NCBI GenBank assembly: GCA_965219855.1
Contig: CBDCOR010000026.1
Span: forward strand, 261,940-325,939
DNA length: 64,000 bases
DNA from: Acidobacteriota bacterium
GTDB lineage: Bacteria > Acidobacteriota > UBA6911 > RPQK01 > JAJDTT01
Direction of reading: 5' to 3'
Shown here piece after piece: positions 1,391-55,153 of this stretch. The stretch's first letter is position 1. Every line of letters starts with the position of its first letter. Made by a program: the position numbers and the translations under genes. The notes beneath the pieces were generated by a model. It was not told the origin of the DNA, ran no database searches, and was given only the letters and a program-made list of their open reading frames with translations.

Positions 1391-1533
1391 AAGTTTCAGC
1401 TTAGTCGCGCCCCAGCCGGGCTGCCCCATTCGAGAAAGAAACTTGAAGCCTCTCGCCACACTGTCCAGTGGCAAGAGACGTGCGACGTTCGGACGTTCAG
1501 ACGTGCGACGATCCCAATGAAGTTTCAGCTTAG
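1391..1533 (+). repeat. Modular repeat array A: 54-bp unit (1391-1444), spacer S0 (1445-1519), half unit (1520-1533)
   Basis: AAGTTTCAGCTTAG...ATTCGAGAAAGAAACTT; near-identical reverse complement at 33078-33220. Confidence 0.9.
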
Positions 1534-18712: not shown

Positions 18713-20391
18713 GTGCCCGTCCGGAAATGTGTAAGTAATTGATAAGGAAGGGGAAAGAGGGCTTTTTCAAGCTCCGAAACTGTCAGGGCCGTTTGCTAGA
18801 CTATTTGGTGCAAACAATTAGACTAAAACGACTTACGACGATTTCAGGAGTTCGAAGATGCGTAAAAAGCGTGAAAAACAACGCCCCCTTTCCCCGCAAT
18901 GGCCCGATCACCAGCTGGCCCATGAATTGAAGGTGATCTCGCGCATCCTGGACGACAATCCCCAGACGCTGGAGCTGATAGTACAAGATCTCTCTGACAG
19001 GGTCGATTCCGGTGTTGGCGCCCCCGGTTTGACGGCCGAGCAGGTGCTGCGTTGCGCCGTCATCAAACAGCTGCATCAGTTCAGCTATCGCAAGCTGGAG
19101 TTTCATCTGGTGGATTCGCAAAGCTGTCAGAGGTTCTGTCGCTTGCCCTATGGGGCGTCGATCAGCAAAGCCACCCTGGCGGAGAACCTGGGGAAGATTG
19201 AGCCGGGGACTTGGAAGGCGATCAACGACCACTTGGTGCTCTGGGCGCAGGCTCGGGGTCTGGAAAAAGGCCAACGGATTCGGGTCGATGCCACGGCGGT
19301 CGAGACGAACATCCACTATCCGCTCGACAGTGAGCTGTTGTACGACGGCATTCGAGTCGTGACCCAGTGGCTGGGGCGGCTGCGGGAGCGGGAAGGGATC
19401 GGCTTCGTCGATCATACGCGGCGGGCCAAGCGGCGCGTCCTGAACATCCGCAACCGCCGCGGCAAGAAGCGCCTGGACAGTTACCGCGATCTGATCAAAG
19501 TGGCGTCCAAGACGGCTCACTATGCCGAGCAGGCGCTGGCAGCTTCCGCGCAGTGGAGCGATCCCCTCAGTCTGGCCGTGGCGGCGCAACTGGCCCACTA
19601 TCTGGGGCTGTTGCACAAAGTCATCGAGCAGACTCAACGACGGGTCCTTTCGGGCGAGGCCGTCGCGGCCCAGGAGAAGATCTGTTCCCTCTTCGAAGAG
19701 CACACCGATATTATCAAGAAGAGCCCTCGGGAAACGGTCTTCGGCCACAAGGTGTTTGTCAGCACGGGCGCCTCGTCGCTGATCCTGGATTGTGTGGTGG
19801 AACGGGGGAATCCGGCCGACAGCAACTATGTGCAACCCTTCTTAGAGCGGCATCGACAGCTGTACGGGAAGGTCCCCCGCCAGAGCGCCTGGGATGGTGG
19901 TTTTGCCTCGGCTGCCAACCTGCGCTGGGCCAAAGAGCAGGGGGTACAGGATGTGGCCTTTTCCAAAAAGTGTGGGTTGACGGTTGAGAGCATGGTGCGT
20001 TCCAGTTGGGTCTACAAACAACTCAAACGCTTCCGCGCCGGGATTGAGGGGTGCATTGGGACCCTCAAGCACACCTTCGGTCTCCACCGCTGTAGCTGGA
20101 AAGGCTGGCCTCACTTTCAAAGCTACGTCCATGCCAGCGTCCTGACCTATAACCTGGTCGTCCTGGCCCGACTCCTGTTGTAGCCTTTTGTGGCTGACCG
20201 TACTGCCTTGTGGCTCCGACTCGGGGAGAGGTCTGCGCCGAACCGCTGCTTTTTGGCCCGCGTGCCCTCGCTCGAGGGTCCTTGCTCTGGATCGAGCTGG
20301 GTCGAGCCGGTCTGTCAGCAGTCTCAAGTATAATAAGTGTTTACGATTCAACAGATTACAGTTCTGAAAACCCCGGTTTTCGGACGGGCAC
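18713..20391 (+). mobile_element. ISNCY-family (ISDol1-like) IS, copy 1, 1679 bp, 6-bp TSD TAGCTA
   Basis: TIRs GTGCCCGTCCGGAAA / TTTTCGGACGGGCAC; TAGCTA at 18707-18712 and 20392-20397. Confidence 0.92.
18858..20183 (+). CDS. DDE transposase (ISNCY / IS5-like)
   Basis: RVDATAVETNIHYPLDS, FGHKV, WDGGF, RAGIEG. Confidence 0.93.
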   Translation: MRKKREKQRPLSPQWPDHQLAHELKVISRILDDNPQTLELIVQDLSDRVDSGVGAPGLTAEQVLRCAVIKQLHQFSYRKLEFHLVDSQSCQRFCRLPYGASISKATLAENLGKIEPGTWKAINDHLVLWAQARGLEKGQRIRVDATAVETNIHYPLDSELLYDGIRVVTQWLGRLREREGIGFVDHTRRAKRRVLNIRNRRGKKRLDSYRDLIKVASKTAHYAEQALAASAQWSDPLSLAVAAQLAHYLGLLHKVIEQTQRRVLSGEAVAAQEKICSLFEEHTDIIKKSPRETVFGHKVFVSTGASSLILDCVVERGNPADSNYVQPFLERHRQLYGKVPRQSAWDGGFASAANLRWAKEQGVQDVAFSKKCGLTVESMVRSSWVYKQLKRFRAGIEGCIGTLKHTFGLHRCSWKGWPHFQSYVHASVLTYNLVVLARLLL

Positions 20392-20594: not shown

Positions 20595-20852
20595 AAGTTT
20601 CTTTCTCGAATGATCCGGCGGTCCGCAGCCGGGGGCTCGGCTAACCTGAAACTTCATTGGCGAATGTAGCTTTGGCCTCCAGGCCGAAGTCTTATTTTTC
20701 CGAGCCTTTGGCTCGGACGGCGGCCTGGAGCCCACCGCTACGCCGGGACCCGGAGTTCGTTCTCGAATGGGACAGCACCGCTGGAGGGCCACTAACCTGA
20801 AACTTGATTTGGCAAGTCTGCAGGGAAGCGGGATATATCCCATTGATTTAGT
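20595..20852 (-). repeat. Modular repeat array B: unit 20595-20654, spacer S1, degenerate unit 20753-20805, S3-like spacer interrupted by IS4
   Basis: AAGTTTCTTTCTCGAAT...CTAACCTGAAACTT twice; S1 matches 34959-35057 and 55057-55153. Confidence 0.88.
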
Positions 20853-22855: not shown

Positions 22856-22865
22856 GGAACCTCCG

Positions 22866-26000: not shown

Positions 26001-26043
26001 GGAAGACGAAGGAGAGAGCCTTTGACGTTCACTGTTCGTGCAG

Positions 26044-26082
26044 AAGTTTCTTTCTCGAATGGGGCCAGCACCGCTGGGGGCG
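26044..26082 (-). repeat. Partial modular repeat unit (C)
   Basis: AAGTTTCTTTCTCGAATGGGGCCAGCACCGCTGG. Confidence 0.8.
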
Positions 26083-26203
26083 GTACCAATATAGAACACA
26101 AGGGAGGTCCCACCAGGCAGGTCGACTGTGGCAAATCACGTGCTTGCCTATCGCAGGATGGGTGATATTACCCGATTTGGAAGAACAGCAGCCGACTGAG
26201 GGC

Positions 26204-27420: not shown

Positions 27421-27430
27421 TGTGTAAGGC

Positions 27431-28952: not shown

Positions 28953-29026
28953 GGTCGTCGTCCCTTGAAAGCAAGTTTGCTGCCCTTGAAGGGACAGTGC
29001 GCCTCCCAGCCGGTCACTGCTCGAAG

Positions 29027-29080
29027 AAGTTTCAGGCTCGTGGGGCCCCCAGCCGCCGGCCCCATTCGAGAAAGAAACTT
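29027..29080 (+). repeat. Modular repeat unit D, preceded by the end of an S2-like spacer
   Basis: AAGTTTCAGGCTCG...ATTCGAGAAAGAAACTT; upstream GCCGGTCACTGCTCGA shared with 35158-35173. Confidence 0.85.
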
Positions 29081-29393
29081 GGGTTTGAGGCAGAGACCCC
29101 CCTCCGCTCTCTCTCCTCGGGGCTTGGCTTCATGATGCTGACATTTGGCCCCGTGCGCGGTACTGTGTTGCTCTTGCTTCCATCGTTGTGAGGGAAGCCT
29201 CTCGCCAGGCTGTCCCGTGACAAGAGACTTGCGACGTGCGACCTGCGACCTCTTCTTGAATTAGCGTCATATCCCCCATACGAACGGGGACTTTGCCCCA
29301 GGTTTCTACTCTGCAGAGTCCACATCAAGAAGGTTCGGATAAGGATCTTTGGCACCCATCTTGCTCATTCTCGAGACAAGACAGGAGGTGGTC

Positions 29394-29753
29394 ATGCTTA
29401 GCAGACAGGAAATGCAGAGTTTGCAGCGGCGTCTCATGGATGCTGTCTGCCCAGTTTGTATCCATAACAGCGTCGATGGTACTTGCGCTCTCTGGTCTCT
29501 CGAAGAATGTCCCATCTCGTCGCATCTGACTCGTCTGACGGGGGTCGTGCAGGCGGTCCAAAGCAACCTGATGGAGGACTATGTAGCAAGGATACGGCAA
29601 GATGTCTGCTCGGTCTGCAGGAGTGCGGAGTTCCACAACCAGGCGTGCGATATGAGGGAAGAAGGCCAGTGTGCCCTCGATGCCTATCTCTCTTTGATTG
29701 TGGACACCATCGACGATTTCTTGAAAGAGCGAGACTCAAAAGCGCCCCTCTGA
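29394..29753 (+). CDS. Small Cys-rich hypothetical protein
   Basis: GGAGGTG RBS; two similar CxxC...C...C halves. Confidence 0.7.
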   Translation: MLSRQEMQSLQRRLMDAVCPVCIHNSVDGTCALWSLEECPISSHLTRLTGVVQAVQSNLMEDYVARIRQDVCSVCRSAEFHNQACDMREEGQCALDAYLSLIVDTIDDFLKERDSKAPL

Positions 29754-29790
29754 GTGAGAATCTGAAGGCTGAACAGGACGGGAGACGACC

Positions 29791-30975
29791 ATGCATGGGA
29801 CCCATCAGAACAGATCTTCTCTACTCCATCCCTCCGAGATCGACTTCACACGTACTCCTTTCGTTGCCATCTGGGAAATCACCCGCGCTTGTGATCTAGC
29901 TTGCCGTCACTGCCGCGCCGAGGCAATTCCCCAGGCCCTTCCCGGCGAACTGACCGAGCAGGAAGGGCAGGATCTGCTTCAGTCCCTGTCGGATATGGGC
30001 ACGCCGATTTGTGTGCTTTCCGGCGGTGACCCCGCCAAGCGCCAAGACCTGTGTGCCCTGGTCGAGCATGGCAATCGACTGGGCATGCGCATGGCCACCA
30101 TTCCAGCTGCGACCCCGCTGCTCACCGGCGAATTGGTAAAGAGTCTGAAGGATGCTGGCCTGGCGCAGATGGCCTTGAGTCTGGATGGTCCGACCGCTGA
30201 AGTCCATGACAAGTTTCGCGGTGTCCCAGGGGCCTTTGATCTTACGCTTGAGGGCGCTCGCTATGCACGGGAGGTCGAACTCCCGCTGTAGATCAACACC
30301 ACCTTCAGCGCCTACAACAGGCAGTATTTCGAGAGCATGGCCGAGTTGGTCCTGAGCCTGGGTGTGGTGTTCTGGGAGGTCTTCTTTCTGGTACCGATGG
30401 GACGAGGGCGCGAGCTCGGCCTGCTCAACGCGGAAGAGTTTGAGCGCTTGTTCGAGCAGCTTGCCCACTTCGCGCGCCGGGTCGACTTCATTGTCAAGAT
30501 CACGGAGGGGCCACACTACCGGCGTTACTTGATGCAGGAACGTTCCCGCGCCCGAAAGAGCAGTCCAGGGGGCAAGAGTCTCGGACCAGCAACACACCCG
30601 AAGGGCGGGCAGCTGCCTTCTCACATGACTCGCGACTTCGGCCCTGGCGGGAGCATCGGACTCGCGCCGAAGGGGGTCAACTCCGGAAACGGATTCGTTT
30701 TTGTCAACTACCGTGGTGACATCTACCCCAGCGGGTTTCTTCCCCTCTCCTGCGGCAACGTCCGCTCCGATTCAATCGGGGAAGTCTATCGATCTCATCC
30801 CGTCTTTCGGGAGCTGCGAGAGCCCGATCTGCTCAAGGGGAAATGCGGGATCTGCGAGTTTCGTCACATTTGTGGAGGCTCCAGAGCCCGCGCCTACGCG
30901 CTGACGGGAGACTATATGGAAGCGGAACGCTTCTGTCTTTACGAGCCGAACGGGTCTCGTCAGTCGGTTCGCTAG
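29791..30975 (+). pseudogene. Radical SAM/SPASM protein (TIGR04053 / AhbD-NirJ-like) with internal TAG
   Basis: CDLACRHC; KGKCGICEFRHICGGSRARAY; TAG at 30289-30291 where QINTT is expected. Confidence 0.88.
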
Positions 30976-30989
30976 ATGATTAAGTGAGG

Positions 30990-31138
30990 CTCCATTCAGC
31001 GTCCCGGATGAACCTGAAGAGTACGAAAACATCAAACAGGGTTCAGAATCTCGGATGGTCGAATACGGCGATGTGATGACGATCAAAGACTGGGTGGACA
31101 TCGTTGCTTATCTCGAAGCACGCCGCCAGGGTAAGTAG
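30990..31138 (+). pseudogene. C-terminal fragment of a c-type cytochrome
   Basis: SRMVEYGDVMTIKDWVDIVAYL. Confidence 0.55.
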
Positions 31139-31255
31139 AGAAATGTGGACGTCCTTTACCTCCGCCAGGGTAGCTGGAGTGGTTCAATCAGCCGGATAAG
31201 TGGTCAAGTTTGGGTCTGCAGCCTCGACTCAAATCGCCAGGAGGCGAAACTGAAA

Positions 31256-31550
31256 ATGATCAACAAGATTATATTTGCAACGGATTTTTCGAAACTATCC
31301 CACCAGGCCTTCGACTACACGCTGAAGGTGGCTCAGAAGACCTGAGCCAAAGTCATCGCTGCACATGTGTTGAAGTCGACGCCACCGCTCTTCGCACCCT
31401 TTGAGTTTCCCGATGACTACAGGTGCCGACTCGAGCAGCAGAGTCGATCCAATCTGGAAGACTTTATTTCTTCGGGATCATTGCCGAGAGCTCTCGAACT
31501 GGAAAATCGCTTGTGCTGGGGAATCCCAGAGCACGCATTGACCGAACCCT
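31256..31550 (+). pseudogene. Universal stress protein, with internal stop and truncation
   Basis: MINKIIFATDFS; TGA at 31343; continues AKVIAAHV. Confidence 0.75.
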
Positions 31551-31596
31551 TAGAACGGGGTAGGAGGTGTCTCGGGGCTAGCTCGGTCAGGGTTGG

Positions 31597-32346
31597 TTGA
31601 TATCCATGGAATTGCGTGACCCAGTATTGACTGTGTTGCTTTGCAGTTCGGTTGCCGCTGCAACCGCAGTATTTGGCGTACTTCCCTTTGCTTTCCACAA
31701 AAGAGTGGGCCTTGAGTGGATTGGAGGTGCCTACGCGCTGGCTTCCGGGCTGATGCTGGGCGTTGCGTATCTTCTCATGACTCGTGGGCTGGAGCGAGGG
31801 TTGCTCCTGGCGATGGCTGGGGCCGGTCTGGGAGTAGCGTACACATACTGGGTCCAGTCCTACGCTGGGATTACCCAGCTGGACACAATGCCGGGTAGGG
31901 GAGCTGAGCCGGACTATGGCTACAGGATCATCCTTCAGAACACACTGCATTCTGCTTCCGAGGGCGTTGCCATCGGTGTTGCCATGCTGGTGAGTCTGAA
32001 GTTGGGTATCTTCATGGCTTTTGCTCTTGCCATCCACAACATCGGCGAAGCCATGGCGTTGACCGCTTTCCTGCGGGACCGAGGCATGTCCACGGGAGAG
32101 TCGGCCGGACTCTGTGTGGTCACCAACGTTGGCCAGGTCCTCCTGGCCATAGTGGCCTTTGCTGTGGGGCCGATGCTCGGCGATCGCCTTCCGGCAGCCT
32201 TGGGATTCGCCGCTGGGGCATTGCTCTTCCTGGTCATGACGGAACTGTTGCCAGCGTCCTACCAGCGTGCGAAGAGTGAGTCCGTTGCCTTTCTGTTGAG
32301 TTTCTCCGTGGCAGCAGTGGTACTGCTGGAAAGCTTCTTTCTCTAG
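31597..32346 (+). CDS. ZIP family metal transporter
   Basis: LASGLMLG, HSASEG, HNIGE, ELLP. Confidence 0.85.
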   Translation: MISMELRDPVLTVLLCSSVAAATAVFGVLPFAFHKRVGLEWIGGAYALASGLMLGVAYLLMTRGLERGLLLAMAGAGLGVAYTYWVQSYAGITQLDTMPGRGAEPDYGYRIILQNTLHSASEGVAIGVAMLVSLKLGIFMAFALAIHNIGEAMALTAFLRDRGMSTGESAGLCVVTNVGQVLLAIVAFAVGPMLGDRLPAALGFAAGALLFLVMTELLPASYQRAKSESVAFLLSFSVAAVVLLESFFL

Positions 32347-32354
32347 CCAAGGTC

Positions 32355-33081
32355 ATGCCGCTATCCATTGCTCTTGTATGGTTCTACGAGCTGATGACCG
32401 CGGCCGCCACCAGCCTCGGAGCAATTCCCTTCGCTTTTTCCAGGACTGTCTCATCAAGAACCGCAGCGTTCAGCAATGCTGCGGCCTCAGGTCTCATGCT
32501 AGGGGCCAGCTTCGGACTCATCTCAGAAGCAACGTCCTACGGCATTTGGCAAACCATCGCTGGAGGGTTGTTGGGTGTCGTCTTCATCTTCGTCGGGGAG
32601 AGGTTGCTCCAACAGAAAGAGGTCCACTTTGGAAACTTTCAGGGAGTAGGAGCCCGCCGGATCCTGCTGCTCATAGGCACGATGACTCTCCACTCCTTTG
32701 CCGAAGGAGTATCCGTCGGTGTGGCCTTCGGTGCAGGTGAGAAACTGGGTATTCTGATAGCTATCGCCATCGCGGTACACAACATTCCAGTTCAGTGCGG
32801 TGATGCGCCCCAACGGTGCGACGCTTTGGGCATGCGCCGGTTGGAGTGCCCTCTCGTCACTACCTCAGCCTCTCATGGCGGTCCCCGCCTTCTTGTTCGT
32901 CGAAACATTTCGCCCCATCTTGCCCTTCGGGTTGGGATTTGCCGCAGGGGCGATGGTTTTTATGGTCTTTCTTCAGCTCCTGCCCGAGGCCTACGAGAGT
33001 GCCAAGACGAGCACCGTGGGCGTATTGGTGTGTGTAACACTCGGTGCAATGATCCTGTTACAGCGTTTGCTTTTGACCTAA
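32355..33081 (+). pseudogene. ZIP family transporter, frameshift/deletion near 32790
   Basis: HSFAEG, HNIP then loss of EG..; C-terminus (SSLPQP, GFAAGAM) in another frame. Confidence 0.82.
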
Positions 33082-33306
33082 CCTGAAACTTCATTGGTAT
33101 CGTCGCACGTCTGAACGTCCGAACGTCGCACGTCTCTTGCCACTGGACAGTGTGGCGAGAGGCTTCAAGTTTCTTTCTCGAATGGGGCAGCCCGGCTGGG
33201 GAGCTACTAAGCTGAAACTTGATTGGCGAATGTAGCTTTGGCCTCCAGGCCGAAGTCTTATTTTTCCGAGCCTTTGGCTCGGACGGCGGCCTGGAGGCCG
33301 CCGCTA
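33078..33306 (-). repeat. Modular repeat array E: half unit, S0, unit 33167-33220, S1 (cut by intron)
   Basis: Near-identical inverse of 1391-1533, followed by S1. Confidence 0.9.
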
Positions 33307-34790
33307 GTGCGCCTGTGAAGGCGTTTGATCAGAAGGGTGAAAGTCCCTTCCAGGCTAACGTTACCGGCCTGAAGTCGACAGTGGTAACTGCGTTTCCGTG
33401 AGGAAGGGTGGAGAGCAACCTGAGACGAACGACCAATCCGTAACGCAAGTGAACTCGATTCGGCCAAGCCTGTCGGGGAGGGTCCTGGCAAAGCCCGAAC
33501 CCTTGACCGCGCGACGGCCATCCCTCCGACCTGAACGGTCTGCCCGGGGGGATAGACGCGGCAAGTCACGGCGGTGAAGTAACGTGACAAAGCGACCGTG
33601 ACGAAATGGCAATGCGGTGGTTGGAGATGGAGAGGTCGGAAGGTCAAACGAGATAAGCAGGGAGATCTGTCGGGTGAGGGACGTGGACGACCCATCGTGA
33701 GAGCTCGCAGTGGGGGACGCTGCGTGAGCAATGGCCCAGGCCCGCGGTGCAGTATCGCCCGCCGAAGGGGAGCGAACCTGGCGATACCGGTGAGGTCGGT
33801 TGAAGCGGCTCGACAGAAGTCAGAGCTCCCATAGTAGCGGGGAAGCCGTGCAGCAAAACGCGGTGGAGCGAAGGGGAGCAGGAAGGTAGATGCGAAATGA
33901 CTAAATCGCGGAAACGTAACTCCGCCCAAAGGCGGGACTACATCCCGGTCACAGTGCCGTTTTCGGCTAGCCCGGCTGGAGAGCCCGCTGGCATCGAACA
34001 GTGGGCTCATCGCGCGGTTTGGACGGATCGCATGTTGGAGACACTTTTGAAAGGAAAGGTGAGAGGAGGGAAATGGCACACGCTGATCGATAAGGTGTTT
34101 TGCAGCCGGAACCTTTCCAGCTCGGCCGAGAAGGTCTTGGGCAGGAAAGGAGCGGCGGGAGTGGACCGGCAAACGTGGGGGGATTTCGCCGAACACGAGC
34201 GGGAGGAACTCGAATGGTTGCAGGAAGAACTGCGTGAGGGGACCTATCGTCCGGCAGCGGTGCTGCGGAGGTGGATTCCCAAAACAGGCAGTTCGGAAAA
34301 GCGACCGCTGGGGATTCCGACCGTGCGGGATCGAGTCGTGCAAACGGCTTTGGTCCACGGGATCGAGCCGATTCTGGAGGCCACGTTCCATGATCGAAGC
34401 TACGGCTTTCGTCATGGGCGAGGGTGCCACGGCGCACTGCGGTACGTCGAAGAGCTGCTCGAAGCCGGTTATGTGTATGTCGTCGACGCGGATCTGAAGG
34501 GTTACTTCGATACGATCCCGAAAGATCGACTGTTGGACCTGATCCAACAGAAGATATCGGATCGCCGCGTGCTGGGCCTGGTTCAGCTGTTTCTGAATCA
34601 GGGGATACTGGAAGAGCTGCGTAAGTGGATTCCGGAAGCCGGAGTCCCCCAAGGCGCCGTTCTTTCTCCGGTGTTGTCGAATGCCTACCTCAATCCCCTG
34701 GACCATCGGATGGCCGATCTGGGCTTCCAGATGGTGCGCTACGCGGATGACTTTGTCCTGCTGTGTCGCGCACCCGAGGAGGCTGAAGCG
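33307..34790 (+). mobile_element. Group II intron, 3'-truncated
   Basis: GTGCG 5' boundary, GGTGAAAGTCC and GAAGTCAG..CATAGTA intron RNA motifs, RT ORF; no DV/DVI seen. Confidence 0.88.
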
Positions 34791-34853
34791 AGGGGTTGGG
34801 AGCTGCACAAATGTTCCCAACTCGTCTGCTGCCTTCCGTTCAAAGCCCGTTAG
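33897..34853 (+). pseudogene. Group II intron reverse transcriptase/maturase, truncated just after YADD
   Basis: RPLGIPTVRDRVVQ, SYGFR, DADLKGYFD, PQGAVLSP, RYADDF; only 318 aa. Confidence 0.9.
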
Positions 34854-35316
34854 TCGAAATATGGCGCTGCGGCCCAACCCCTCAATCTGAGAGCTACCTA
34901 TCGAAGTTTCAGCTTAACCCCGCCACCGGCTGCGCCGGATCGTACCTGAAAGAAACTTCAGTCGAGGGACGTAGCGGTGGGCTCCAGGCCGCCGTCCGAG
35001 CCAAAGGCTCGGAAAAATGAGACTTCGGCCTGGAGGCCAAAGCTACATTCGCCAATGAAGTTTCAGGTTAGTGGCCCCCCGGCGTTGCTGCCGCATTCGA
35101 GAACGAAACTTTGGTTGTCTTTAGCCACGAACATCGATAGCAGCATGCCCATCCTACGCCGGTCACTGCTCGATCAAGTTTCAGCTTAGCCCCGCCTCCG
35201 GCTGCAGAATCGTACAGGAAAGAAACTTCTTGAGTCATAAACATGACCTAAAAATCACTGAATCAATGGGTTACACCCTTGCACCTCAGGAATGGCCAAA
35301 TCAAGTTTCAGCTCAA
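34791..35316 (+). repeat. Modular repeat array F: hairpin spacer, unit 34904-34958, S1, unit 35058-35111, S2, unit 35176-35228, S3, half unit 35303-35316
   Basis: Three full AAGTTTCAGSTTAR...GAAACTT units separated by 99, 64 and 74 bp spacers. Confidence 0.92.
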
Positions 35317-36564
35317 CGCGCTGGCTCGGTCATTTCCAAGGGGTAGACGCGATCCTTAAGTGGGAGATCTACTCGCTTTCCCGAAAAGTGTGAGGCATAG
35401 ACCCCTTGGACCACTTCCGTGATCTGAACGGCATGTTCGAGTCCCGAAAGGGGTGGGCGATCCTCTTGGATGGCATCAATCAGATCGTTGGCCAGGGTGT
35501 TGTTGAAGACTTGCCGCCAACGCTTGTTTTCTAGCTGGGGGTTGGGTTCGCCCTCAGGCGTGAAGTGCCAATCGTCAAGCACTAGCTTCTCCCATTGCAG
35601 ATTCTGATTGTCTGCCAGGACGGTAGGTGCGTCGTAAAGGTAGACATCGCCTGGCGAGCGGAGTTGGATCCGCTTCTTCTCGCACTCGAGCATTATGCCG
35701 AACAGATGTGTGAAGGGTCTGGTCTTTTTCCACGGATAGGCCCGCCGTGCTGTCGAAGAACACGCGCGTGCCGTTGTCGAAGCCGATGACAGCTGACACC
35801 GAATCCCCCGCGATGGGACCCAGGAATTCGGGCTCTGTCTGACGGTCCGTCCGGGTGATGTCTCGGCCATTTACCTGAACATTGCCGAACACCCAGCGAG
35901 GCCAGCCGGCAATCGTGAAGAGCAGCGTGAAGTGGTGGGTACCGTGGAGAATCAGCTCGTGGCCGCCTCCACGTGCGTCGTCCTTGGGGCGGATGTATGC
36001 CCGCAGCAGTTTTCCGTACTTGCCGGCGCGAATCTCGTGGATGATCTTCCGGACGGGAGGCGCGGCGGCCCACTGGTGTGCCATCGCCAACTTGATCCCG
36101 GCACGACGGCAAGCGGCGGCTATCCGGTCGGCCTTGGCAAGGGTGGAGACGAACGGTTTCTCGCAGAAGATGTGGGCACCGACCTCAGCCGCAGCCGAAA
36201 TCATTTCGACCCGCTGGTTCAGCCAGGATAGCCCGATGCACACGATGTCGGGCCTCACGACCTGCAACATCTGTCGATAGTCACCGAAAGTGGTTGCCAG
36301 ATTCAGCCGCGACGCTGTTTCCTTTCGACCTTCTGCCGAGGGGTCAGCCAAGGCCACAATCTCCGCCCGTTCAACACCCACGAACGCCGTGTCCAAACCG
36401 TGACCATTGTTCCCCCGCCCGGTAGAACCGATCACGGCGACGCGGTACTTTCGCTTCTTACGCGCCATCAGATCCTGGTCTTGGCCAATCATGGCGCCAC
36501 TCGCTAAGGGGATGGCAGCCCCGCTGAGTTTCAGAAACTGTCGTCGCCCAGTGCGATGAAGCAT
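35313..36564 (-). pseudogene. Tat-exported Gfo/Idh/MocA oxidoreductase, frameshift near 35730
   Basis: RRQFLK leader, HIFCEKP; C-terminus (DLIDAIQEDRPPLS, VDLPL) in another frame. Confidence 0.82.
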
Positions 36565-36578
36565 GGTTCTCTCTAGCG

Positions 36579-39500
36579 CTATTTGGCCCTGCCGACTGCC
36601 AGAGTGGGCTTGAGTCCGCCTCCCGTTGCGACGTAGGCGATCAGGTCCAGGATATCCTTGGAGGAAGCAGTGTTGAGCAGCCCTTCCGGCATCACGGAAA
36701 TCGTCGATTCCCACCTCTCCTTGATCCTGTCCTTGGCGATCTCTTCGGGCTCCTCGCTTTCCAGAGGGTTGGCTACCAGGCGAACCACATGCTTGTCCTC
36801 GTAGGTTACGACGCCGCTGAGGATGACACCTTTTTTCGTCGTGATTACCTGGACCTTATACTTCTCGTCTATGACAGCGGAGGGTTCGACGACCTCTTTG
36901 AGCAGAGCCAGCCGGTCGAGCTCTCCCGAGGCCAATTTCTCCGAAACCAGGGTGAGATCAGGACCCGTTTGACCTCCACTGCCGTTCATCTGATGGCACC
37001 GATTACAGGAGAGATCCGTGAACAAGTGGGCCCCATTCTCGAAGTTCCGGTCTGCGTCCAGACGTCCCAAGGATCCGACCAGGTCGCTTAGCTTCCAAGC
37101 CTTTACGAACTCCCTGGAGTCGATCTCGGTGGGCTCGGCCGCGGACAACACGTCTGCGGAGATCTTCTCAAGATCGTCGACGACGTGCATGGTCCCGACC
37201 ATGGTTCGCCAGTGACCTGGGAAGGTGCAGACGTAGGGGTAATCTCCCAATTCTCCAGGGGCCGTGAATTGAAGCTTCTCCAGCTGCTGGGGTTGGAGCA
37301 GCTTGGTGGCGTAGAGGACGTTTCGCGTCTTGGGCACGAACTGCAACTCGAAGGCATCGGGACGCGTCGCCATCCGCTCGGCGGCCATACCCACTTCGAC
37401 CAGCGAACCGGGCGTGGTGATCAGCAGGTTGTGGGGCATGATATCGATGTTCTCGAACACGATCTCGACTGGGCGTCCCGCCTCGACGAAGATTTCCTTC
37501 CGATCGTATTGCATCCGGTTCGGGAGGGGTTTGATGGCGATCACCGTAACGGCCAGATCCGCCAATCGGTCCCGATATCCGCCGGACTGATCGGAAGGAA
37601 GCAGGTCTGCGAGCTCCCCTGCTAGCTTGGCCGCATTCAGGGCATCCTCTGAGGTGCGACGCCGAGGCGGAAGCGAGGCCAGGTGATCCACGATTCCTGC
37701 TAGCAGTGGGAGAAGATCTTGTTGGGAGATCCTTTCCCTGGTCAGCTTCTGAACCGCTTTAATGGCTGCTACACGCATCCTGTCCGAGGAGATGAGCTCC
37801 GCCAGCAAATGAAGCGATTTGGCCTGATAACTGGGGATCGAGGGCAGCGCCTCGATGGCAGCCGTGCGGACGACTTCGGCGCGGGACCTTGACTTTGCCG
37901 TCCTCCCAGCCAGCTGAGGAGGAAAGTGGCGGAGGAGCCCCTCCAGTCTCGGGTGATTCAGGGAACGCAACCGAGGATCCGAGATGAGGGGGATACTCTC
38001 GGCCAGGTCCTGCAGCGCTTGGAGTGAGCCCGAGGAGCGCTTCCACGAGTCTTCCACTCCCTGATCTGCGACGATCAGGGCCACGTTGGCAAGCCGGTGC
38101 GTTGGCGCTAGCCTTGCAGAGCCCGCGAGCCGCTCCAGGTCGCCGCGGTTGGAATTCAGCTCCGCACCAGATCGCCGTTCCAGAAGCCGGCCCAGATCCA
38201 GCAGGACCGGCTCAGCCTGGGATAGGTCTCCTCCATCGACCAGTTGAATGGCCGAAAGAAGCTCCAATATCTCACTCGACTGATTCAGCCCGGCCAGCCC
38301 GCTCAGAGCCTCCAGTCGGTACTGCTCTCTTATTCCGGCAGTAGAGAGCAAAGCCGTGTAGACAGACCGATTCCGTGACGCTTTCTGGAGCTCGCCGGGG
38401 CTCAGGCGCTCCAGCAGATACTCCGTCCCTTTCGGGTTGTCCGGCAGGAAGGACTGGCCCGAGGTAAGGATCGGGTGCCAATGAGGCTTGAGCGTCTGGA
38501 TCGTTTCTCCCAGCGTGTAGTTGAGATAATCGTCCATGGGGTGCCGCACGACTTCCAATGCGACATCGGCAGCCCGCGGACTTTCGAAGAAACTGGAGGC
38601 TCGCACTGCCTCCAGCCGGACTCGTGGATGGTCGTCCCCTGCCTGGAACAGGAGCAGATCGAGCGCATCTTCGATCTGATCGCGCCAGTAAGCCAGGACG
38701 CGAGTGGCTGCGGCTCTTGCCCGATAATCCGATGAGCGCAGTAACTGTTTCAGGAGCCGGGTGTTGACGGCGTTATGATGCTGATGCACCCAGAGTGCCT
38801 CCAGACGGTGGTGTTCGTAGTCCTTGTCCGTTGGGTCGAGGCCCTCAATCCATGCTTTCAGCGCGGCAACGACCTTTTCTCGATCGTGCTCTCTCAACTC
38901 CAACCTCACCCGGTAGCGCGTCCGGTCTTCATAAGTCTTCAGCAGCTCTAAGAGCGCCTCGATTGGCTCGCCCGCGATCTTGGCAGGCTGCAGCAGGGGC
39001 CTGCTAGGATAGGTGATTCTCCAGACCCGGCCATGAGTCGCATCTCGGTTGGGGTCTCGAAGGTTGTGCTGCATGTGGCCGACCAGGGGATTGAACCAGT
39101 CAACCACGTAGAGCGCCCCATCTGGACCGAACTGCAAATCGGTGGGGCGAAAGTTTCGGTCGGAGGAAAATAGGATTGGCTCGATCTCGGTTCCCACAAA
39201 ACCGGACCCCTCCTCCTTGACCCGGTGCTGCAGAATTCCCTGGAAACCGATGACGTTGTTCAGCAAGAAGTTCCCCTGAGCCGAAGGAGGAAAGTGGCGG
39301 CTGGAGACGAACTCGCATCCCGCGGTTGGACGTACTCGCTTGACGATGAACTGCTTCATCTGGGAGCGATAGGTGTATTTAAAGGGACCGAAGTCGGGCT
39401 GACCGGTAAAGGGGGAAGCCTTTCCGGAGAAGGCCGTGCCAAAGTAGTTGCGTCCGCCAGAGGCGTCGGCTACGAAGTTCTGTCCCCAGGCATTGAAGAC

Positions 39501-41132: not shown

Positions 41133-41265
41133 CTTCGCTTCTCGATCGTGAATGTGTCGAGGGAGTGTAGCGGTCCAGCGCTCGAGAGGTCAATCTACGG
41201 GACGGTGGATCTCTTCGAATGTAGAGATCTGGATAGGAAATTTTAGAAGGGATTGTCTGGAAACC

Positions 41266-41371
41266 GTGGCGGTGGCCTCCGGGCCGCCGTTTTTCGAGCC
41301 AAAGGCTCGAAGGAAACAACACGGCGGCCCGGAGGCCGCCACCACGTCTCTCGACTGACGTTTCTTTCTCG
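41266..41371. repeat. Palindromic S1 variant followed by a repeat half (H)
   Basis: GTGGCGGTGGCCTCCGGGCCGCCGT...CGAGCCAAAGGCTCG...ACGGCGGCCCGGAGGCCGCCACCAC, then CTCGACTGACGTTTCTTTCTCG. Confidence 0.8.
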
Positions 41372-41491
41372 GCTGGTGCCAGCGCGGTTGGCAAAGGGAC
41401 TGCTCTGCGCCCATCTTTCCTTGACCGACTTCCCAGGCCTGCATAGAATGAGCTCCGGTCAAGTATTGAAGTCCCTCTCTTCAGAGTACTG

Positions 41492-48559: not shown

Positions 48560-50238
48560 GTGCCCGTCCGGAAATGTGTAAGTAATTGATAAGGAAGGGG
48601 AAAGAGGGCTTTTTCAAGCTCCGAAACTGTCAGGGCCGTTTGCTAGACTATTTGGTACAAACAATTAGACTAAAACGACTTACGACGATTTCAGGAGTTC
48701 GAAGATGCGTAAAAAGCGTGAAAAACAACGCCCCCTTTCCCCGCAATGGCCCGATCACCAGCTGGCCCATGAATTGAAGGTGATCTCGCGCATCCTGGAC
48801 GACAATCCCCAGACGCTGGAGCTGATAGTACAAGATCTCTCTGACAGGGTCGATTCCGGTGTTGGCGCCCCCGGTTTGACGGCCGAGCAGGTGCTGCGTT
48901 GCGCCGTCATCAAACAGCTGCATCAGTTCAGCTATCGCAAGCTGGAGTTTCATCTGGTGGATTCGCAAAGCTGTCAGAGGTTCTGTCGCTTGCCCTATGG
49001 GGCGTCGATCAGCAAAGCCACCCTGGCGGAGAACCTGGGGAAGATTGAGCCGGGGACTTGGAAGGCGATCAACGACCACTTGGTGCTCTGGGCGCAGGCT
49101 CGGGGTCTGGAAAAAGGCCAACGGATTCGGGTCGATGCCACGGCGGTCGAGACGAACATCCACTATCCGCTCGACAGTGAGCTGTTGTACGACGGCATTC
49201 GAGTCGTGACCCAGTCGCTGGGGCGGCTGCGGGAGCGGGAAGGGATCGGCTTCGTCGATCATACGCGGCGGGCCAAGCGGCGCGTCCTGAACATCCGCAA
49301 CCGCCGCGGCAAGAAGCGCCTGGACAGTTACCGCGATCTGATCAAAGTGGCGTCCAAGACGGCTCACTATGCCGAGCAGGCGCTGGCAGCTTCCGCGCAG
49401 TGGAGCGATCCCCTCAGTCTGGCCGTGGCGGCGCAACTGGCCCACTATCTGGGGCTGTTGCACAAAGTCATCGAGCAGACTCAACGACGGGTCCTTTCGG
49501 GCGAGGCCGTCGCGGCCCAGGAGAAGATCTGTTCCCTCTTCGAAGAGCACACCGATATTATCAAGAAGAGCCCTCGGGAAACGGTCTTCGGCCACAAGGT
49601 GTTTGTCAGCACGGGCGCCTCGTCGCTGATCCTGGATTGTGTGGTGGAACGGGGGAATCCGGCCGACAGCAACTATGTGCAACCCTTCTTAGAGCGGCAT
49701 CGACAGCTGTACGGGAAGGTCCCCCGCCAGAGCGCCTGGGATGGTGGTTTTGCCTCGGCTGCCAACCTGCGCTGGGCCAAAGAGCAGGGGGTACAGGATG
49801 TGGCCTTTTCCAAAAAGTGTGGGTTGACGGTTGAGAGCATGGTGCGTTCCAGTTGGGTCTACAAACAACTCAAACGCTTCCGCGCCGGGATTGAGGGGTG
49901 CATTGGGACCCTCAAGCACACCTTCGGTCTCCACCGCTGTAGCTGGAAAGGCTGGCCTCACTTTCAAAGCTACGTCCATGCCAGCGTCCTGACCTATAAC
50001 CTGGTCGTCCTGGCCCGACTCCTGTTGTAGCCTTTTGTGGCTGACCGTACTGCCTTGTGGCTCCGACTCGGGGAGAGGTCTGCGCCGAACCGCTGCTTTT
50101 TGGCCCGCGTGCCCTCGCTCGAGGGTCCTTGCTCTGGATCGAGCTGGGTCGAGCCGGTCTGTCAGCAGTCTCAAGTATAATAAGTGTTTACGATTCAACA
50201 GATTACAGTTCTGAAAACCCCGGTTTTCGGACGGGCAC
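48560..50238 (+). mobile_element. ISNCY-family IS, copy 2, 1679 bp, 6-bp TSD TAGTTA
   Basis: Same TIRs as copy 1; TAGTTA at 48554-48559 and 50239-50244. Confidence 0.92.
48705..50030 (+). CDS. DDE transposase (ISNCY), one W>S difference from copy 1
   Basis: VVTQSLG versus VVTQWLG. Confidence 0.93.
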   Translation: MRKKREKQRPLSPQWPDHQLAHELKVISRILDDNPQTLELIVQDLSDRVDSGVGAPGLTAEQVLRCAVIKQLHQFSYRKLEFHLVDSQSCQRFCRLPYGASISKATLAENLGKIEPGTWKAINDHLVLWAQARGLEKGQRIRVDATAVETNIHYPLDSELLYDGIRVVTQSLGRLREREGIGFVDHTRRAKRRVLNIRNRRGKKRLDSYRDLIKVASKTAHYAEQALAASAQWSDPLSLAVAAQLAHYLGLLHKVIEQTQRRVLSGEAVAAQEKICSLFEEHTDIIKKSPRETVFGHKVFVSTGASSLILDCVVERGNPADSNYVQPFLERHRQLYGKVPRQSAWDGGFASAANLRWAKEQGVQDVAFSKKCGLTVESMVRSSWVYKQLKRFRAGIEGCIGTLKHTFGLHRCSWKGWPHFQSYVHASVLTYNLVVLARLLL

Positions 50239-54287: not shown

Positions 54288-55046
54288 ATGAGCCTTTCAA
54301 ACCCCAACGTCGGCGGTATTCCTATCCGCCTTGGAGATGTCCCACCGATGTTCTTGCGTCTGCAGGAGCTGTTCAATCGAGGGATTGGCATTCCCACGCT
54401 CGAAGGGCGTTTTCGCGGTGCCTTGGTTTCCTGGCACTCGGATGGGTTGACTCGCTTTCTCGACCTCAACACGCTCAACCTTGCCTGGATGCGCATGGGC
54501 GCCAGCTTCAGCACCTGGACCGGCAAGACCTTTGAGAAGGTCTCCCCGGCCAGACTCAGGGAGCTCACGGACGGCTGGGAGACCGGGGAGCAGCCGACGG
54601 TCTGGGGTACCAACACCCAGGCTTTGCGCACGCCCCGCGAGCGTCTTGCTGGCAAGATGATGAAGCTTGCTGGAGTGTGGAGCGAAACGGTTCCCGCAGA
54701 AGAGGCACGGCAGTTCGGTTATGACCTGAAGAACTTCTTTTTCATTGCATGCCAGGCTGAATCGGTGAATTCACACAACGCAGGCAAGACCTTGCTGCAA
54801 TTCAACTACCGATGGCCCAAGCTGAGGACGATCATTCCCGATCGTTACTGCGTCGACGAATTGGTGCAGATCGCCGATGGGCTCTACCTAGGGCAACTGA
54901 TGTATGCAACCAACCTGCTCAAGCCCTACGACCCTCAGGTGAACCCAGCAGAGTACCAATATGGCCACTTCGGATACTTCCTCCTGATGGACGACGAGTG
55001 GCACCGGATCCGTGTGGACCTCGGCTTCGACCTGGCCAACGTCTGA
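54288..55046 (+). CDS. Hypothetical protein with WxGKxF and DE...GLYLG motifs (possibly a gene fragment)
   Basis: LQELFNRG..LEGRFRG, WTGKTF, VDELVQIADGLYLG. Confidence 0.65.
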   Translation: MSLSNPNVGGIPIRLGDVPPMFLRLQELFNRGIGIPTLEGRFRGALVSWHSDGLTRFLDLNTLNLAWMRMGASFSTWTGKTFEKVSPARLRELTDGWETGEQPTVWGTNTQALRTPRERLAGKMMKLAGVWSETVPAEEARQFGYDLKNFFFIACQAESVNSHNAGKTLLQFNYRWPKLRTIIPDRYCVDELVQIADGLYLGQLMYATNLLKPYDPQVNPAEYQYGHFGYFLLMDDEWHRIRVDLGFDLANV

Positions 55047-55153
55047 CCTGAAACTTCATTGGCGAATGTAGCTTTGGCCTCCAGGCCGAAGTCTTATTTT
55101 TCCGAGCCTTTGGCTCGGACGGCGGCCTGGAGCCCACCGCTACGTCCCTCGAC
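55043..55153 (-). repeat. Modular repeat G: half unit plus S1
   Basis: CTGACCTGAAACTT followed by S1 essentially identical to 20655-20742. Confidence 0.9.

Follow-up and report, generated by a model that had tools for sequence, protein, structure and literature searches.

What kind of element is the array of short repeats at 34904-35316, and how do such arrays come to stand behind genes? The array lies in a 64,000-nt stretch (C26:261940-325939; hereafter the window) of contig CBDCOR010000026.1 from the genome G000. The preliminary description had counted 3.5 copies of a repeat unit in 34791-35316, alternating with reused spacers. From 34904 onwards we found three full units and a terminal half-unit, separated by spacers of 99, 64 and 74 bp (Table 1). 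The segment 34791-34903, however, contained no unit and is part of another palindromic module. The units are 54-60 bp long with variable cores, begin with AAGTTTCAG... and end with ...GAAAGAAACTT. The claimed recurrence of the unit was borne out. For its 14-nt left end, AAGTTTCAGSTTAG, the window has 11 occurrences where chance would give 0.06; the matches were to AAGTTTCAGSTTAR with at most one mismatch, and 11 was reached in 0/100 shuffles (shuffle mean, 0.06). In the whole genome there were 575 unit matches in 383 arrays, and mixed orientation was seen in 0/138 multi-unit arrays. The other loci listed earlier (1391-1533, 20595-20852, 26044, 29027, 33078-33306, 41266-41371 and 55043-55153) were all recovered.

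The reuse of spacers was likewise confirmed. The spacer first called S0 links 1390-1533 to 33078-33221 (144 nt at 97%), the one first called S1 was found at 20638, 33204, 34961 and 55040 and, in variant form, at 41265-41346, and the tail of S2 was found at 29009 and 35158. The S3-like link from 20806 to 35229 was weak, consisting of a 14-mer with 2 mismatches at 20835, and as many matches occurred in 2/100 shuffles. The arrays were absent from the output of Tandem Repeats Finder. A known RNA family was ruled out as their identity by the missing Rfam matches, both in the window at gathering scores and in 34700-35400 at E <= 1. We conclude that the repeats are genuine members of a numerous family of short mobile cassettes without coding content, stacked head to tail behind genes. 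The hosts are a group of probable Acidobacteria. Motif copies numbered 94-258 in all 5 genus-mates, 155 in one genome of another family and 0-1 in 9 sister-genus genomes. No description of the family turned up in a literature search on Acidobacteria and MITEs, REPs or group II introns, and one with the 14-mers gave a single unrelated paper; the supplements of REP papers may list acidobacterial repeat families.

Table 1. Repeat units, modules and adjoining features in the window
Feature	Position	Strand	Remarks
Single cassette, 14-nt end on both sides	1391..1533	+	
Two-unit array	20595..20852	-	
Solitary unit, 5'-truncated	26044..26089	-	profile positions 11-55
S2-type module tail, then full unit	29009..29080	+	
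Terminal half-unit (3' end, Lh) of minus-strand array	33078..33091	-	+ strand TAA and TGA stops close ORFs 32800..33081 and 32355..33086
Cargo module S5 (module cluster 1), family GAAGCCTCTCGCC...	33092..33166	-	first called S0; 97% to 1390-1533
Full unit: 3' end of upstream cassette (33207-33220), then core and right arm of next cassette	33167..33220	-	
Hairpin part of REPIN-like module S0	33221..33306	-	first called S1; cut at 33306/33307 by group II intron
Group II intron, 5' 1484 nt of ~2026 nt	33307..34790	+	starts GTGCG; 3'-truncated at 34790
Part of long palindromic module (GAGGGGTTGGG...CCCAACCCCTC), S10 family	34791..34903	+	meets intron at common GCTGAAGCG
Unit 1: left-end variant AAGTTTCAGCTTAA, then type-B core and right arm	34904..34958	+	
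REPIN-like module S0: two inverted GTAG-tagged arms	34959..35057	+	with flanking arms, predicted fold of -36.6 kcal/mol (z = -7.9)
Unit 2, type-A core	35058..35111	+	
Module S2, 117-bp family TGGTTGTCTTTAGCC..., internally deleted copy	35112..35175	+	tail first called S2 end
Unit 3, type-B core variant	35176..35228	+	
Module S8, family with AATCAATGGGTTAC	35229..35302	+	first called S3-like
Terminal half-unit AAGTTTCAGCTCAA	35303..35316	+	35313-35315 is TGA stop of convergent ORF 35313..35870; G001 orthologue has intact AAGTTCCAGCTTAG, its TAA ending the gene at the same place
S0-variant hairpin and degenerate unit	41265..41391	-	G001: unit kept, module different, ~230 bp
Terminal half-unit and S0 module	55043..55153	-	stop codon of ORF 54288..55046 inside half-unit

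CRISPR arrays are built from identical direct repeats of about 24-48 bp and unique spacers of similar length. The present arrays were rejected as CRISPR on three grounds: the length of the units and their variable cores, the spacers, of which 162/189 fall into 11 repeated families and are thus not unique, as had been claimed, and the cas genes. Cas1 (PF01867) gave no match in the whole genome, which is 95.5% complete; the same search matched 7/14 control genomes.

The preliminary description placed the module boundaries at the unit, and this parse did not hold. The core of a unit is linked to the module that follows it (AMI 0.30, reached by 0/300 permutations). Core type 0 was followed by module 1 in 37/43 cases and type-B cores by module 0 in 33/33 and 9/10, while the link across the junction was weaker (AMI 0.147). 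The core travels with the module after it. The left end was often missing from the first unit of an array: profile position 1 was reached in 195/383 first units versus 179/192 later units. The left end lies outside the first cassette. Since the core is linked to the following module and first units often lack the left end, we shifted the parse to the joints. The 55-bp unit is the joint at which the 3' end of one cassette meets the 5' hairpin of the next. This joint, written as ..AAGTTTCAGCTTAG followed by core..GAAACTT, is an imperfect hairpin in which the ends are conserved and the centre varies.

On the strand first described, a cassette consists of a GC-rich REP-like hairpin core of 25-30 nt, a right arm ending in ..GAAAGAAACTT, one cargo module and the 3' end (CCAATG)AAGTTTCAGSTTAG. 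Spacer clustering (189 spacers) gave about 10 module families, one of which forms the cargo in each case; several are GTAG-tagged REPIN-like palindromes, and modules S0 and S2 are such palindromes in inverted pairs. Internal deletion variants at hairpins were observed within modules (290 versus 169 bp, 117 versus 60 bp). The AAGTTTC of the cassette 3' end would pair back to the right arm across the module. In the folding analysis that had been suggested for the unit, the unit alone folded no better than shuffles (z = -0.4 to -1.6), but the right arm, module and 3' end together folded into a stem with AGSTTAG left unpaired. In 14 units, covariation was limited to a single pair.

The boundaries of the arrays are sharp. 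The 217 terminal half-units have repeat on the upstream side and unique DNA beyond, where the 14 positions past TTAG each hold 0.0-0.1 bits of information. At the other end, the tetranucleotide before the core in 116 first units with a degenerate left end was TTAG in 36 and TCAG in 28 (T[TC]AG in 64/116). When first units with unique upstream DNA and at most 5/10 matches to AAGTTTCAGS were considered, T[TC]AG was present in 18/42, compared with 0.45% of random genome positions. A short target is enough, and insertion takes place 3' of a fixed tetranucleotide. The cassettes in G028 have the same ends with a different module and equally sharp boundaries. It is worth noting that a full left end is present in about half of the first units, as well as in 4/4 single G028 cassettes read, and that first-unit left ends grade continuously in their match to the motif, without falling into two classes. 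Because of these two facts, decay of a left repeat borne by the element itself is a possible alternative source of the missing left ends.

We propose that a single cassette or a run of neighbours would insert directly 3' of TTAG, sometimes of TCAG, without terminal inverted repeats and with no need for a target duplication. Each cassette would end in TTAG and would thereby recreate a target. As every cassette ends in TTAG, later insertions would therefore stack head to tail in one orientation. That the arrays consist of mobile cassettes joined at TTAG seems to us highly probable.

The same tetranucleotide would fit nested MITEs of the DDE type, that is, miniature derivatives of YTAR-targeting IS5- or IS1380-like elements that duplicate TTAG and land in the TTAG of earlier copies. 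YTAR agrees with TTAG, several insertion-sequence families of the genome (0, 5 and others) sit exactly at the TTAG of a joint or at CTAG, and the arrays resemble such MITEs in being abundant, hairpin-forming and non-coding, with YTAG-like sites and stop codons as landing places. These MITEs, however, have terminal inverted repeats and a 4-bp duplication, whereas the conserved cassette ends are direct. By inspection, the cassette ends show no inverted repeats (5' ends TGGGGCC.., TCCCGCC.. or CAGCGCC..; complement of the 3' end, SCTGAAACTTSATTGG), and they match none of the 14 insertion-sequence termini compared. The sequence repeated directly at both ends is 14-20 nt long, not 4 nt. In 92 arrays with a left tetranucleotide other than TTAG, the terminal one was equal in 6 and TTAG in 65. 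The flanking tetranucleotides thus do not covary, which speaks against a four-base duplication, although an invariant TTAG target would mask one. Taking these facts together, we consider DDE-type MITEs decidedly unlikely.

The cassettes described above have moved recently and independently of one another. A full-length relative at >=98% identity exists for 97/217 cassettes. Among 718 cassette pairs at >=97% identity, both flanks differ in 449 and both are common in only 7. No single element of fixed order emerged: the commonest modules occur in both orders, near-identical cassettes stand in different contexts, and different cassettes occupy orthologous sites. At the site of 1391..1533, between the same two genes, G000 has one cassette, G001 the 14-nt end alone, G004 two other cassettes and G003 one long cassette; at 35303 the terminal end is kept in G001 and the cassettes upstream differ. 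The free assortment of spacers supposed earlier was not found either, since there are preferred orders (0->1 in 12 cases and 1->0 in 2; 2->0 in 13 and 0->2 in 5) and 241/718 near-identical pairs have a common upstream neighbour. No contig from four sequencing runs bridges an array in an alternative form, and short contigs break at the repeats; the apparent joints in these contigs join different copies of the family and are uninformative on gain or loss of cassettes.

The preferred orders and common upstream neighbours would be expected if the arrays were a mosaic of REP-like repeats, shuffled, amplified and deleted in the manner of BIMEs by homologous or slipped-strand recombination at the 55-bp joints, with no insertion specific to cassettes. 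The internal module deletions located at hairpins point in the same direction, and the solitary half-unit in G001 is the remnant expected from recombination between flanking copies. Recombination, however, cannot seed about 380 dispersed intergenic loci. It also does not account for boundaries that are exact at TTAG at 217 termini, for some first cassettes that have T[TC]AG before them but lack the remainder of the repeat, or for the near-identical pairs that differ on both flanks. A mosaic made by recombination therefore appears unlikely, and insertion of TTAG cassettes remains our preferred reading.

Since the same 14-16 nt stand in direct orientation around the cassettes, exchange by a site-specific recombinase was also considered. 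In this scheme, a tyrosine or serine recombinase encoded elsewhere would act on circular cassettes at a conserved site of 14-20 nt, as in integrons or dif modules. The fixed terminal site with cassette content that differs in sister species is consistent with such exchange, as are the hairpin joint and the 39 tyrosine-recombinase (PF00589) matches in the genome. Integron attC arrays have a similar appearance: co-oriented cassettes, imperfect hairpins of about 55-60 nt with inverse conserved ends and a variable centre, and a boundary inside the hairpin. In the attC consensus, the R''/R' boxes read RYYYAAC ... GTTRRRY, with the crossover between G and TT. By inspection the present ends are unlike these boxes, and the boundary lies after TTAG, 7 nt past GTT.

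Other features also set the arrays apart from integrons. There is no integrase, attI or promoter platform; the arrays are dispersed at hundreds of loci, and their cassettes are non-coding and repeated. As had been stated, the window contains no integrase, with 0/39 of the tyrosine-recombinase matches inside it and the only match on C26 at 370835. About 380 loci lack an adjacent integrase, and T[TC]AG alone is enough for some first cassettes. An element with three recombinases lies near an array in only 1/3 of its copies, which we take as coincidence. An integron cassette array was rejected on the window matches, the 383 loci and the ends outside the R''/R' consensus, and site-specific exchange in general is highly improbable.

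The arrays are almost entirely intergenic (375/383), and next to the terminal end the gene runs convergently in 251/374 cases. The stop codon of the neighbouring gene lies inside the half-unit at 58/217 termini (TAA in 46, TGA in 12). This position would follow from insertion at TTAG. Since TTAG complements CTAA, insertions would land on TAA stops and restore them, and arrays would therefore stand directly behind convergent genes.

It would also be conceivable that the arrays are kept behind genes as RNA or transcription signals, serving as terminators or 3'-end stabilisers, and that their mobility is secondary. The orientation bias toward the abutting gene is in line with this idea, and S0 read in the direction of the gene is a hairpin followed by a T-run, with one terminator-like hit at 35043-35022. 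One such hit, however, is at the level of shuffles (mean 0.9), a third of the arrays have the other orientation, and Rfam gave no match at E <= 1. Moreover, the exact TTAG boundaries and the spread of the family are left unexplained by a function as RNA or transcription signal, which we consider very unlikely as the main reason for the persistence of the arrays.

The group II intron beside the array bears on this point. Its RT ORF starts at 33897 and includes a YADD motif; the RT/maturase scored 336.9 bits with TIGR04416 (cut-off 300), and domains V-VI scored 56.1 bits with RF00029 (gathering score 40). About 79 copies are present in the genome, and a hairpin arm of S0 lies directly before 72/78 of the intron 5' ends. 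The S0 hairpin is the homing site of this intron, which behaves like class C in its insertion at a stem-loop. According to PMC4424553, class C introns insert just downstream of terminator-like stem-loops, not at a long homing site, and also home into attC sites. The homing of such a terminator-seeking intron type into S0 could be taken in favour of the signal function discussed above. The truncated RT gene stands beside the array because the intron homes into the S0 module.

The cassettes are selfish DNA of the REP/BIME and miniature-transposon type in a new variant, and the CRISPR- or integron-like reading is set aside. REPs and BIMEs with the Y1 protein RAYT (TnpA-REP) of E. coli, Pseudomonas and Stenotrophomonas are GC-rich palindromes that abound between genes, bear a tetranucleotide tag on the 5' side and form mosaics with variable linkers. 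They are likewise placed behind genes, vary in copy number and content at orthologous sites, and are targeted by insertion sequences. The present repeats too are abundant GC-rich extragenic palindromes with a terminal tetranucleotide, the core hairpin coming directly after TTAG, and the GTAG-tagged inverted pairs S0 and S2 resemble REPINs. In PMC3333891 and PMC3733652, REPs are modelled as single-stranded circles that are excised and reinserted at alternative cleavage sites, which could yield such variety. There are also clear differences. In BIMEs the REPs alternate in orientation (PMC2817692), whereas no array here is mixed; the tag at the joint is TTAG, not GTAG; the cassettes hold 50-300 bp of cargo from about 10 families; and no Y1 gene is flanked by the repeat as in a REPtron.

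A second comparison is with IS200/IS605, which, according to PMC7290912 and PMC3333891, have no inverted repeats, make no duplication, insert 3' of a tetra- or pentanucleotide and are acted on in one strand. The cassettes resemble these elements, and the PATEs that retain their ends only, in having no terminal inverted repeats, no evident target duplication, insertion 3' of a tetranucleotide, hairpins near the ends and a single polarity. Unlike in IS200/IS605, the 3' cleavage sequence of the cassette equals its target, which forms arrays, and one cargo can take the place of another. G000 yielded no autonomous copy with these ends. The lagging-strand bias of IS200/IS605 was not detected: array orientation was against the local GC-skew sign in 147 cases and with it in 116 (p = 0.066), giving no clear replication-strand bias. 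A third parallel is ISPpu9 (IS110) of Pseudomonas putida with its ssr9 module, where, according to PMC12288879, modules bounded by boxes excise as separate circles, occur singly or together, and insert into REPs. Our modules likewise have repeated boxes at their ends and are found singly or in combination, but in ISPpu9 a known transposase lies inside the element and there are only two modules, whereas here no IS110-type features and no conservation 3' of the insertion point were seen.

The likeliest chemistry would be a strand-specific, single-strand "peel and paste" reaction in which an HUH/Y1 enzyme related in kind to those of IS200/IS605 and RAYT acts in trans. Indirect support comes from cassette ends without inverted repeats, flanking tetranucleotides that do not covary, the 5' hairpin and the stem with AGSTTAG unpaired, as well as from the IS200/IS605 parallels, the G028 element after CTTAG and the Y1_Tnp matches of G000 described below. 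We put forward an HUH-type enzyme tentatively, as a possibility that falls short of an even chance. The whole explanation, namely mobile TTAG cassettes with a self-renewing target and HUH-type chemistry as the likeliest, we hold to be evenly balanced between right and wrong.

The search for a recombinase or transposase with the same ends, which the preliminary description had anticipated, identified none. Of its cassette-like or BIME-like proposal, the shared pool of modules, the joints at a conserved repeat, and gain and loss by a non-local enzyme or a BIME/REP-like mosaic stood; the parse and the free assortment did not. G000 has six Y1_Tnp matches, among them the TIR-flanked type at C26:73.8 kb and C6:3.8 kb and a 218-aa type at C30:68.5 kb. 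No unit lies within 6 kb of these genes and no S0 arm within 5 kb, and a linkage in the style of RAYT was rejected for this reason. The sole Y1 gene with its ends read (L008) has inverted repeats of its own on either side, 151 nt in length. The phyletic profile of Y1_Tnp, present in 27/31 genomes, gave no discrimination, and the distribution of the repeat is matched by neither Y1 lineage. In G028, an IS200-type element stands directly after CTTAG in both copies read. This TTAG-inserting type occurs in G028, G005 and G030 with no match in G000, and was rejected as enzyme source on account of that absence. Conversely, no match as strong as the Y1 genes of the G000 type (TIR-flanked) was seen in G028. 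Other ends, and no unit motifs, were found in the IS200 elements of G001, G004, G005 and G028.

Other candidates were also rejected. An autonomous cassette was not found, since no long gene-bearing cassette exists in G000 and each "module" above 400 bp is an intron-bearing S0, an insertion sequence or an ordinary gene beside an array missed by the pattern. IS91-like Y2 elements, in four near-identical copies, lack the unit motif and have unrelated ends. The zinc ribbon of TnpB (PF07282) gave no matches. In 16 other long repeat families the motif stood at the ends of at most 27% of copies (intron: 52/74).

A bolder reading is that the cassettes represent a form of DNA movement not described before. 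Any one of a dozen non-coding cargoes would be carried with a REP-like hairpin on its 5' side and, on its 3' side, a 14-nt end by which the TTAG target is rebuilt. A single-strand enzyme acting in trans would excise a cassette, or a few adjacent ones, and paste this DNA in after any TTAG. A candidate for such an enzyme is a TIR-flanked Y1 transposase of the type with 151-nt repeats that contain hairpins with a TTTAG loop. We regard this reading as rather unlikely. If it were true, arrays would grow as in integrons or CRISPR at hundreds of gene ends, the stop codon being repaired each time, and they would serve as landing pads for a group II intron that seeks stem-loops.

In practical terms, the neighbouring gene takes its stop codon from the array end in about one quarter of cases, which matters for annotation, and the repeats together with the ~79-copy intron break short-read contigs in assembly. 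For the debated question of how repeats of the REP/BIME kind spread and become diverse, this cassette family is clean test material, with exact boundaries, a 4-nt target, distinguishable cargo, many copies at >=98% identity, and presence or absence between sister species. The cassettes provide specific substrates for Y1/HUH enzymes, and with them it may be asked whether a self-renewing target alone can build arrays without a dedicated platform.

The array at 34904-35316 had the structure attributed to it in the preliminary description, with three units, three spacers (99, 64 and 74 bp) and a closing half-unit, AAGTTTCAGCTCAA. The left-end motif, that is, the first 14 nt of the unit, was matched 11 times in the window with at most one mismatch, against 0.06 expected from shuffles. 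All of the other loci reported earlier, together with the reuse of their spacers, were recovered by a repeat finder, which gave a 97% match across 144 nt between 1390-1533 and 33078-33221 and a 98% match between 34961-35071 and 55043-55153. Tandem Repeats Finder and an Rfam search reported nothing in the array region of the window.

Coordinates of the array and of the neighbouring intron copy (window positions)
Feature	Position	Remark
Unit 1	34904-34958	53-55 bp class
Unit 2	35058-35111	53-55 bp class
Unit 3	35176-35228	53-55 bp class
Final half-unit AAGTTTCAGCTCAA	35303-35316	
Group II intron copy	33307-34790	3' 540 nt missing

Two further repeats were noted in the window. The heptamer AGTGAGC is tandemly repeated at 844-902 (8.4 copies); similar tracts, CACTGCT/CACTATT, recur throughout the genus and lie directly 5' of the first unit in several arrays of the genome under study (G000) and of its genus-mates G001 and G004. 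A 300-nt direct repeat (99% identity; 18706-19005 and 48553-48852) overlaps the starts of the 442-aa ORFs 18858..20183 and 48705..50030, and probably represents two copies of another mobile element.

The G000 assembly (8.35 Mb, 32 contigs, 58% G+C), in which the window occupies C26:261940-325939, contained 340 full units by a strict pattern, mostly of 54-56 bp. A profile made from these units gave 575 matches, which were grouped into 383 arrays with one unit (245 arrays), two (99), three (30) or four to seven (9). None of the 138 multi-unit arrays showed mixed orientation. The 189 inter-unit spacers fell into 38 clusters, eleven of which, with 80, 22, 14, 14, 9, 8, 6, 3, 2, 2 and 2 members, held 162 spacers; some clusters were deletion variants of each other (290 versus 169 bp and 117 versus 60 bp). 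Two modules were inverted pairs of GTAG-tagged palindromes, and in this respect resemble REPINs. The commonest hairpin had 766 arms and 333 paired copies, 157 of which were flanked by a right arm on one side and a left end on the other; 68 were solitary. The genome carries an extreme load of insertion sequences: together, the 25 largest families of repeats of at least 600 bp (e.g. L060, L061 and L063-L070) amount to 1.51 Mb out of 8.35 Mb. In the largest family there are 150 copies, each of about 1.88 kb and located at CTAG/TTAG sites; the longest ORF of this family, with 651 aa, gave no Pfam or NCBIfam match.

When the arrays were printed with unique DNA marked, they started with a full unit and ended with the first 14 nt of the unit, followed immediately by unique sequence. 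Of 595 left-end motifs in G000 (at most one mismatch), 297 began full units and 217 were terminal half-units with repeat upstream and unique DNA downstream; at these 217 termini, each of the 14 positions 3' of TTAG carried 0.0-0.1 bits of information. Profile position 1 was reached in 195 of 383 first units versus 179 of 192 later units. Where the left end of a first unit was degenerate (116 units), the core was preceded by TTAG in 36 and by TCAG in 28. T[TC]AG also preceded the core in 18 of the 42 first units whose unique upstream DNA had near-random similarity to AAGTTTCAGS, against a background of 0.45% at randomly sampled genome positions. From these boundary counts and first-unit differences, we concluded that TTAG and the core meet at a real junction, and that the 55-bp "unit" is therefore a joint of two things.

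The type of core predicted the downstream module; the three clearest types did so in 37 of 43, 33 of 33 and 9 of 10 cases. This linkage had an adjusted mutual information of 0.30, a value reached in none of 300 permutations; the linkage across the TTAG junction was weaker (0.147). Since the junction lies at TTAG and the core is linked to its module, the cassette consists of a hairpin core, a right arm, a cargo module and the 3' end (CCAATG)AAGTTTCAGSTTAG. We regard this description, cassettes joined at TTAG, as highly probable. Less probably, the arrays could be built from an element that has direct terminal repeats of 14 nt and is moved by a site-specific recombinase. The left repeat is complete in about half of the first units of G000 and in all four single cassettes read in G028, a genome from another family, and first-unit left ends grade continuously in their similarity to the motif; the recombinase reading therefore stays viable as a less likely alternative.

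The cassettes joined at TTAG were also compared with each other. A full-length relative was present for 217 of 245 cassettes, at least 98% identical for 97 of these. Among 718 cassette pairs of at least 97% identity, both flanks differed in 449; the upstream neighbour alone was shared in 241, the downstream neighbour alone in 21 and both flanks in 7. Segmental duplication is rejected as the source of these near-identical cassettes. The asymmetry between upstream and downstream sharing suggests that neighbouring cassettes travel as runs, always ending at the same 3' end. Modules were found in both orders, with preferences (0 to 1 in 12 cases and 1 to 0 in 2; 2 to 0 in 13 and 0 to 2 in 5). The alternative named in the preliminary description, a single element of fixed order, therefore fails.

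Orthologous sites differ among the genus-mates. Between a gene ending in GGTTCATAA and a conserved GGTATACAAT, G001 has AAGTTTCAGCTTAG alone, G000 one cassette, G004 two different ones, G003 one long cassette, and G002 and G005 remnants. The terminal 14 nt at this site are identically placed in G000, G001 and G004, with diverged copies in G002 and G003. At the right edge of the array at 34904-35316, G001 has AAGTTCCAGCTTAG against the same gene end, with different upstream modules, and at 41266 G001 keeps the unit but with another module, about 230 bp long. As judged from sequence comparison, the recent copies, differing contexts, both module orders and orthologous-site differences indicate that the cassettes are mobile. 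They constitute an abundant, recently active modular non-coding family with a self-renewing TTAG junction.

By our own rough gene calls, 375 of 383 arrays were intergenic, and the gene adjoining the terminal half-unit was convergent in 251 of 374 cases. The stop codon lay inside the half-unit at 58 of 217 termini, as TAA, the complement of TTA(G), in 46 and as TGA, the complement of TCA, in 12; the window has three such cases (33079-33086, 35313-35315 and 55044-55046). Insertion after TTAG by an element that itself ends in TTAG would regenerate the CTAA stop. TTAG is rare in G000 (7 of 20,000 sampled positions versus roughly 0.27% expected from base composition), and this depletion may reflect pressure from many TTAG/YTAG-targeting elements. 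Long ORFs overlapping in different frames within 35313-36714 on the minus strand (35313..35870 and 35575..36714) and within 32355-33086 on the plus strand (32355..33086 and 32800..33081) suggest frameshifted genes adjoining arrays.

Exact copies of the 14-mer numbered 437 in G000, 94-258 in all five genus-mates, 0-1 in nine sister-genus genomes and 155 in a single genome belonging to another family within the same order (reversed-14-mer controls: 0-1 copies). The G028 cassettes have the same ends and a different module of about 300 bp. Among the matches listed, the full unit also occurred in public MAGs titled Acidobacteria or Acidobacteriota, which makes an acidobacterial host probable. Comparison with defining features excluded a CRISPR array, an integron and a DDE-type MITE as the identity of the arrays. 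The closest known systems are REP/BIME sequences with RAYTs and ends-only IS200/IS605 derivatives. In the former, however, the repeats alternate in orientation and a RAYT gene is flanked by REPs, both features being missing from the cassette arrays, and the latter have ends in common with an autonomous element, which is missing for the cassettes. A literature search of main texts for the 14-mers, or for descriptions of REPs, MITEs or introns in Acidobacteria, found no account of the cassette family.

As to the mobilising enzyme, one of the IS200/IS605-RAYT-like kind (HUH, Y1) may move the cassettes. Compared with these systems as portrayed in excerpts of PMC7290912 and PMC3333891, the cassettes share asymmetric ends, a hairpin just after the left cleavage point, single polarity, a fixed 4-nt target and a stem between right arm and 3' end that leaves AGSTTAG unpaired. 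The last feature appeared in the predicted fold of the cassette with S0, a REPIN-like hairpin module (-36.6 kcal/mol, z = -7.9). The nearest published idea to cassette movement is the model of PMC3333891, in which BIMEs diversify through excision followed by reinsertion at alternative sites.

The cassette ends carry no inverted repeats and matched none of 14 insertion-sequence termini. In 92 arrays with a left tetranucleotide other than TTAG, the terminal one was equal in 6 and TTAG in 65, with no covariation; a duplication at YTAG sites was not confirmed for the cassettes. Array orientation had no clear tie to the replication strand. An enzyme gene bounded by the cassette ends, as the preliminary description had envisaged, was not found among Y1, TnpB, IS91-like and tyrosine recombinase candidates. 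There were no TnpB matches and no tyrosine recombinases linked to arrays; IS91-like elements were rejected as the cassette source, their ends being unrelated. Neither units within 6 kb nor S0 arms within 5 kb accompanied the six Y1 genes of G000, and the distribution of both Y1 lineages across genomes does not follow the cassette repeat. We consider an HUH mechanism possible, at a probability well short of even.

Two IS200-type elements deserve mention in their own right. The Y1 (IS200-like) transposase gene at L008:1207-2050 (G000:C26:73522-74365), the one of the six whose ends were read, lies between its own 151-nt inverted repeats, whose four TTTAG motifs resemble, by eye, short-hairpin loops. 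There are approximately 58 matches genome-wide. Many gene-less, MITE-like pairs of these repeats are spaced 200-350 bp apart, some of them a few hundred bp or less from a cassette array. A 600-bp element of G028 (L075, L076), in about 10 identical copies, is located directly 3' of CTTAG in both copies read; it is also present in G005 (L073) and has no match in G000.

The ORF at 33897-34853, with a YADD motif, is the reverse transcriptase of a group II intron present in G000 at about 99% identity among copies. A full copy (L062:228-2253, about 2026 nt) begins with GTGCG and closes with domains V-VI (RF00029, 56.1 bits); the intron-encoded reverse transcriptase/maturase has 452 aa (TIGR04416, 336.9 bits). 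The intron is antisense to the cassettes and, alone among the long repeat families, is tied to the arrays (52 of 74 copies). In 72 of 78 cases, its 5' end is placed a single base within the 3' foot of the S0 hairpin, a likeness to class C introns, which, according to the excerpted part of PMC4424553, insert likewise at terminators and attC sites. The window copy abuts a palindromic module at a common GCTGAAGCG, a join that would be due to illegitimate recombination. The approximately 79 copies in G000 are a very high number for a bacterial intron, with a dispersed repeat, S0, serving as the homing site.
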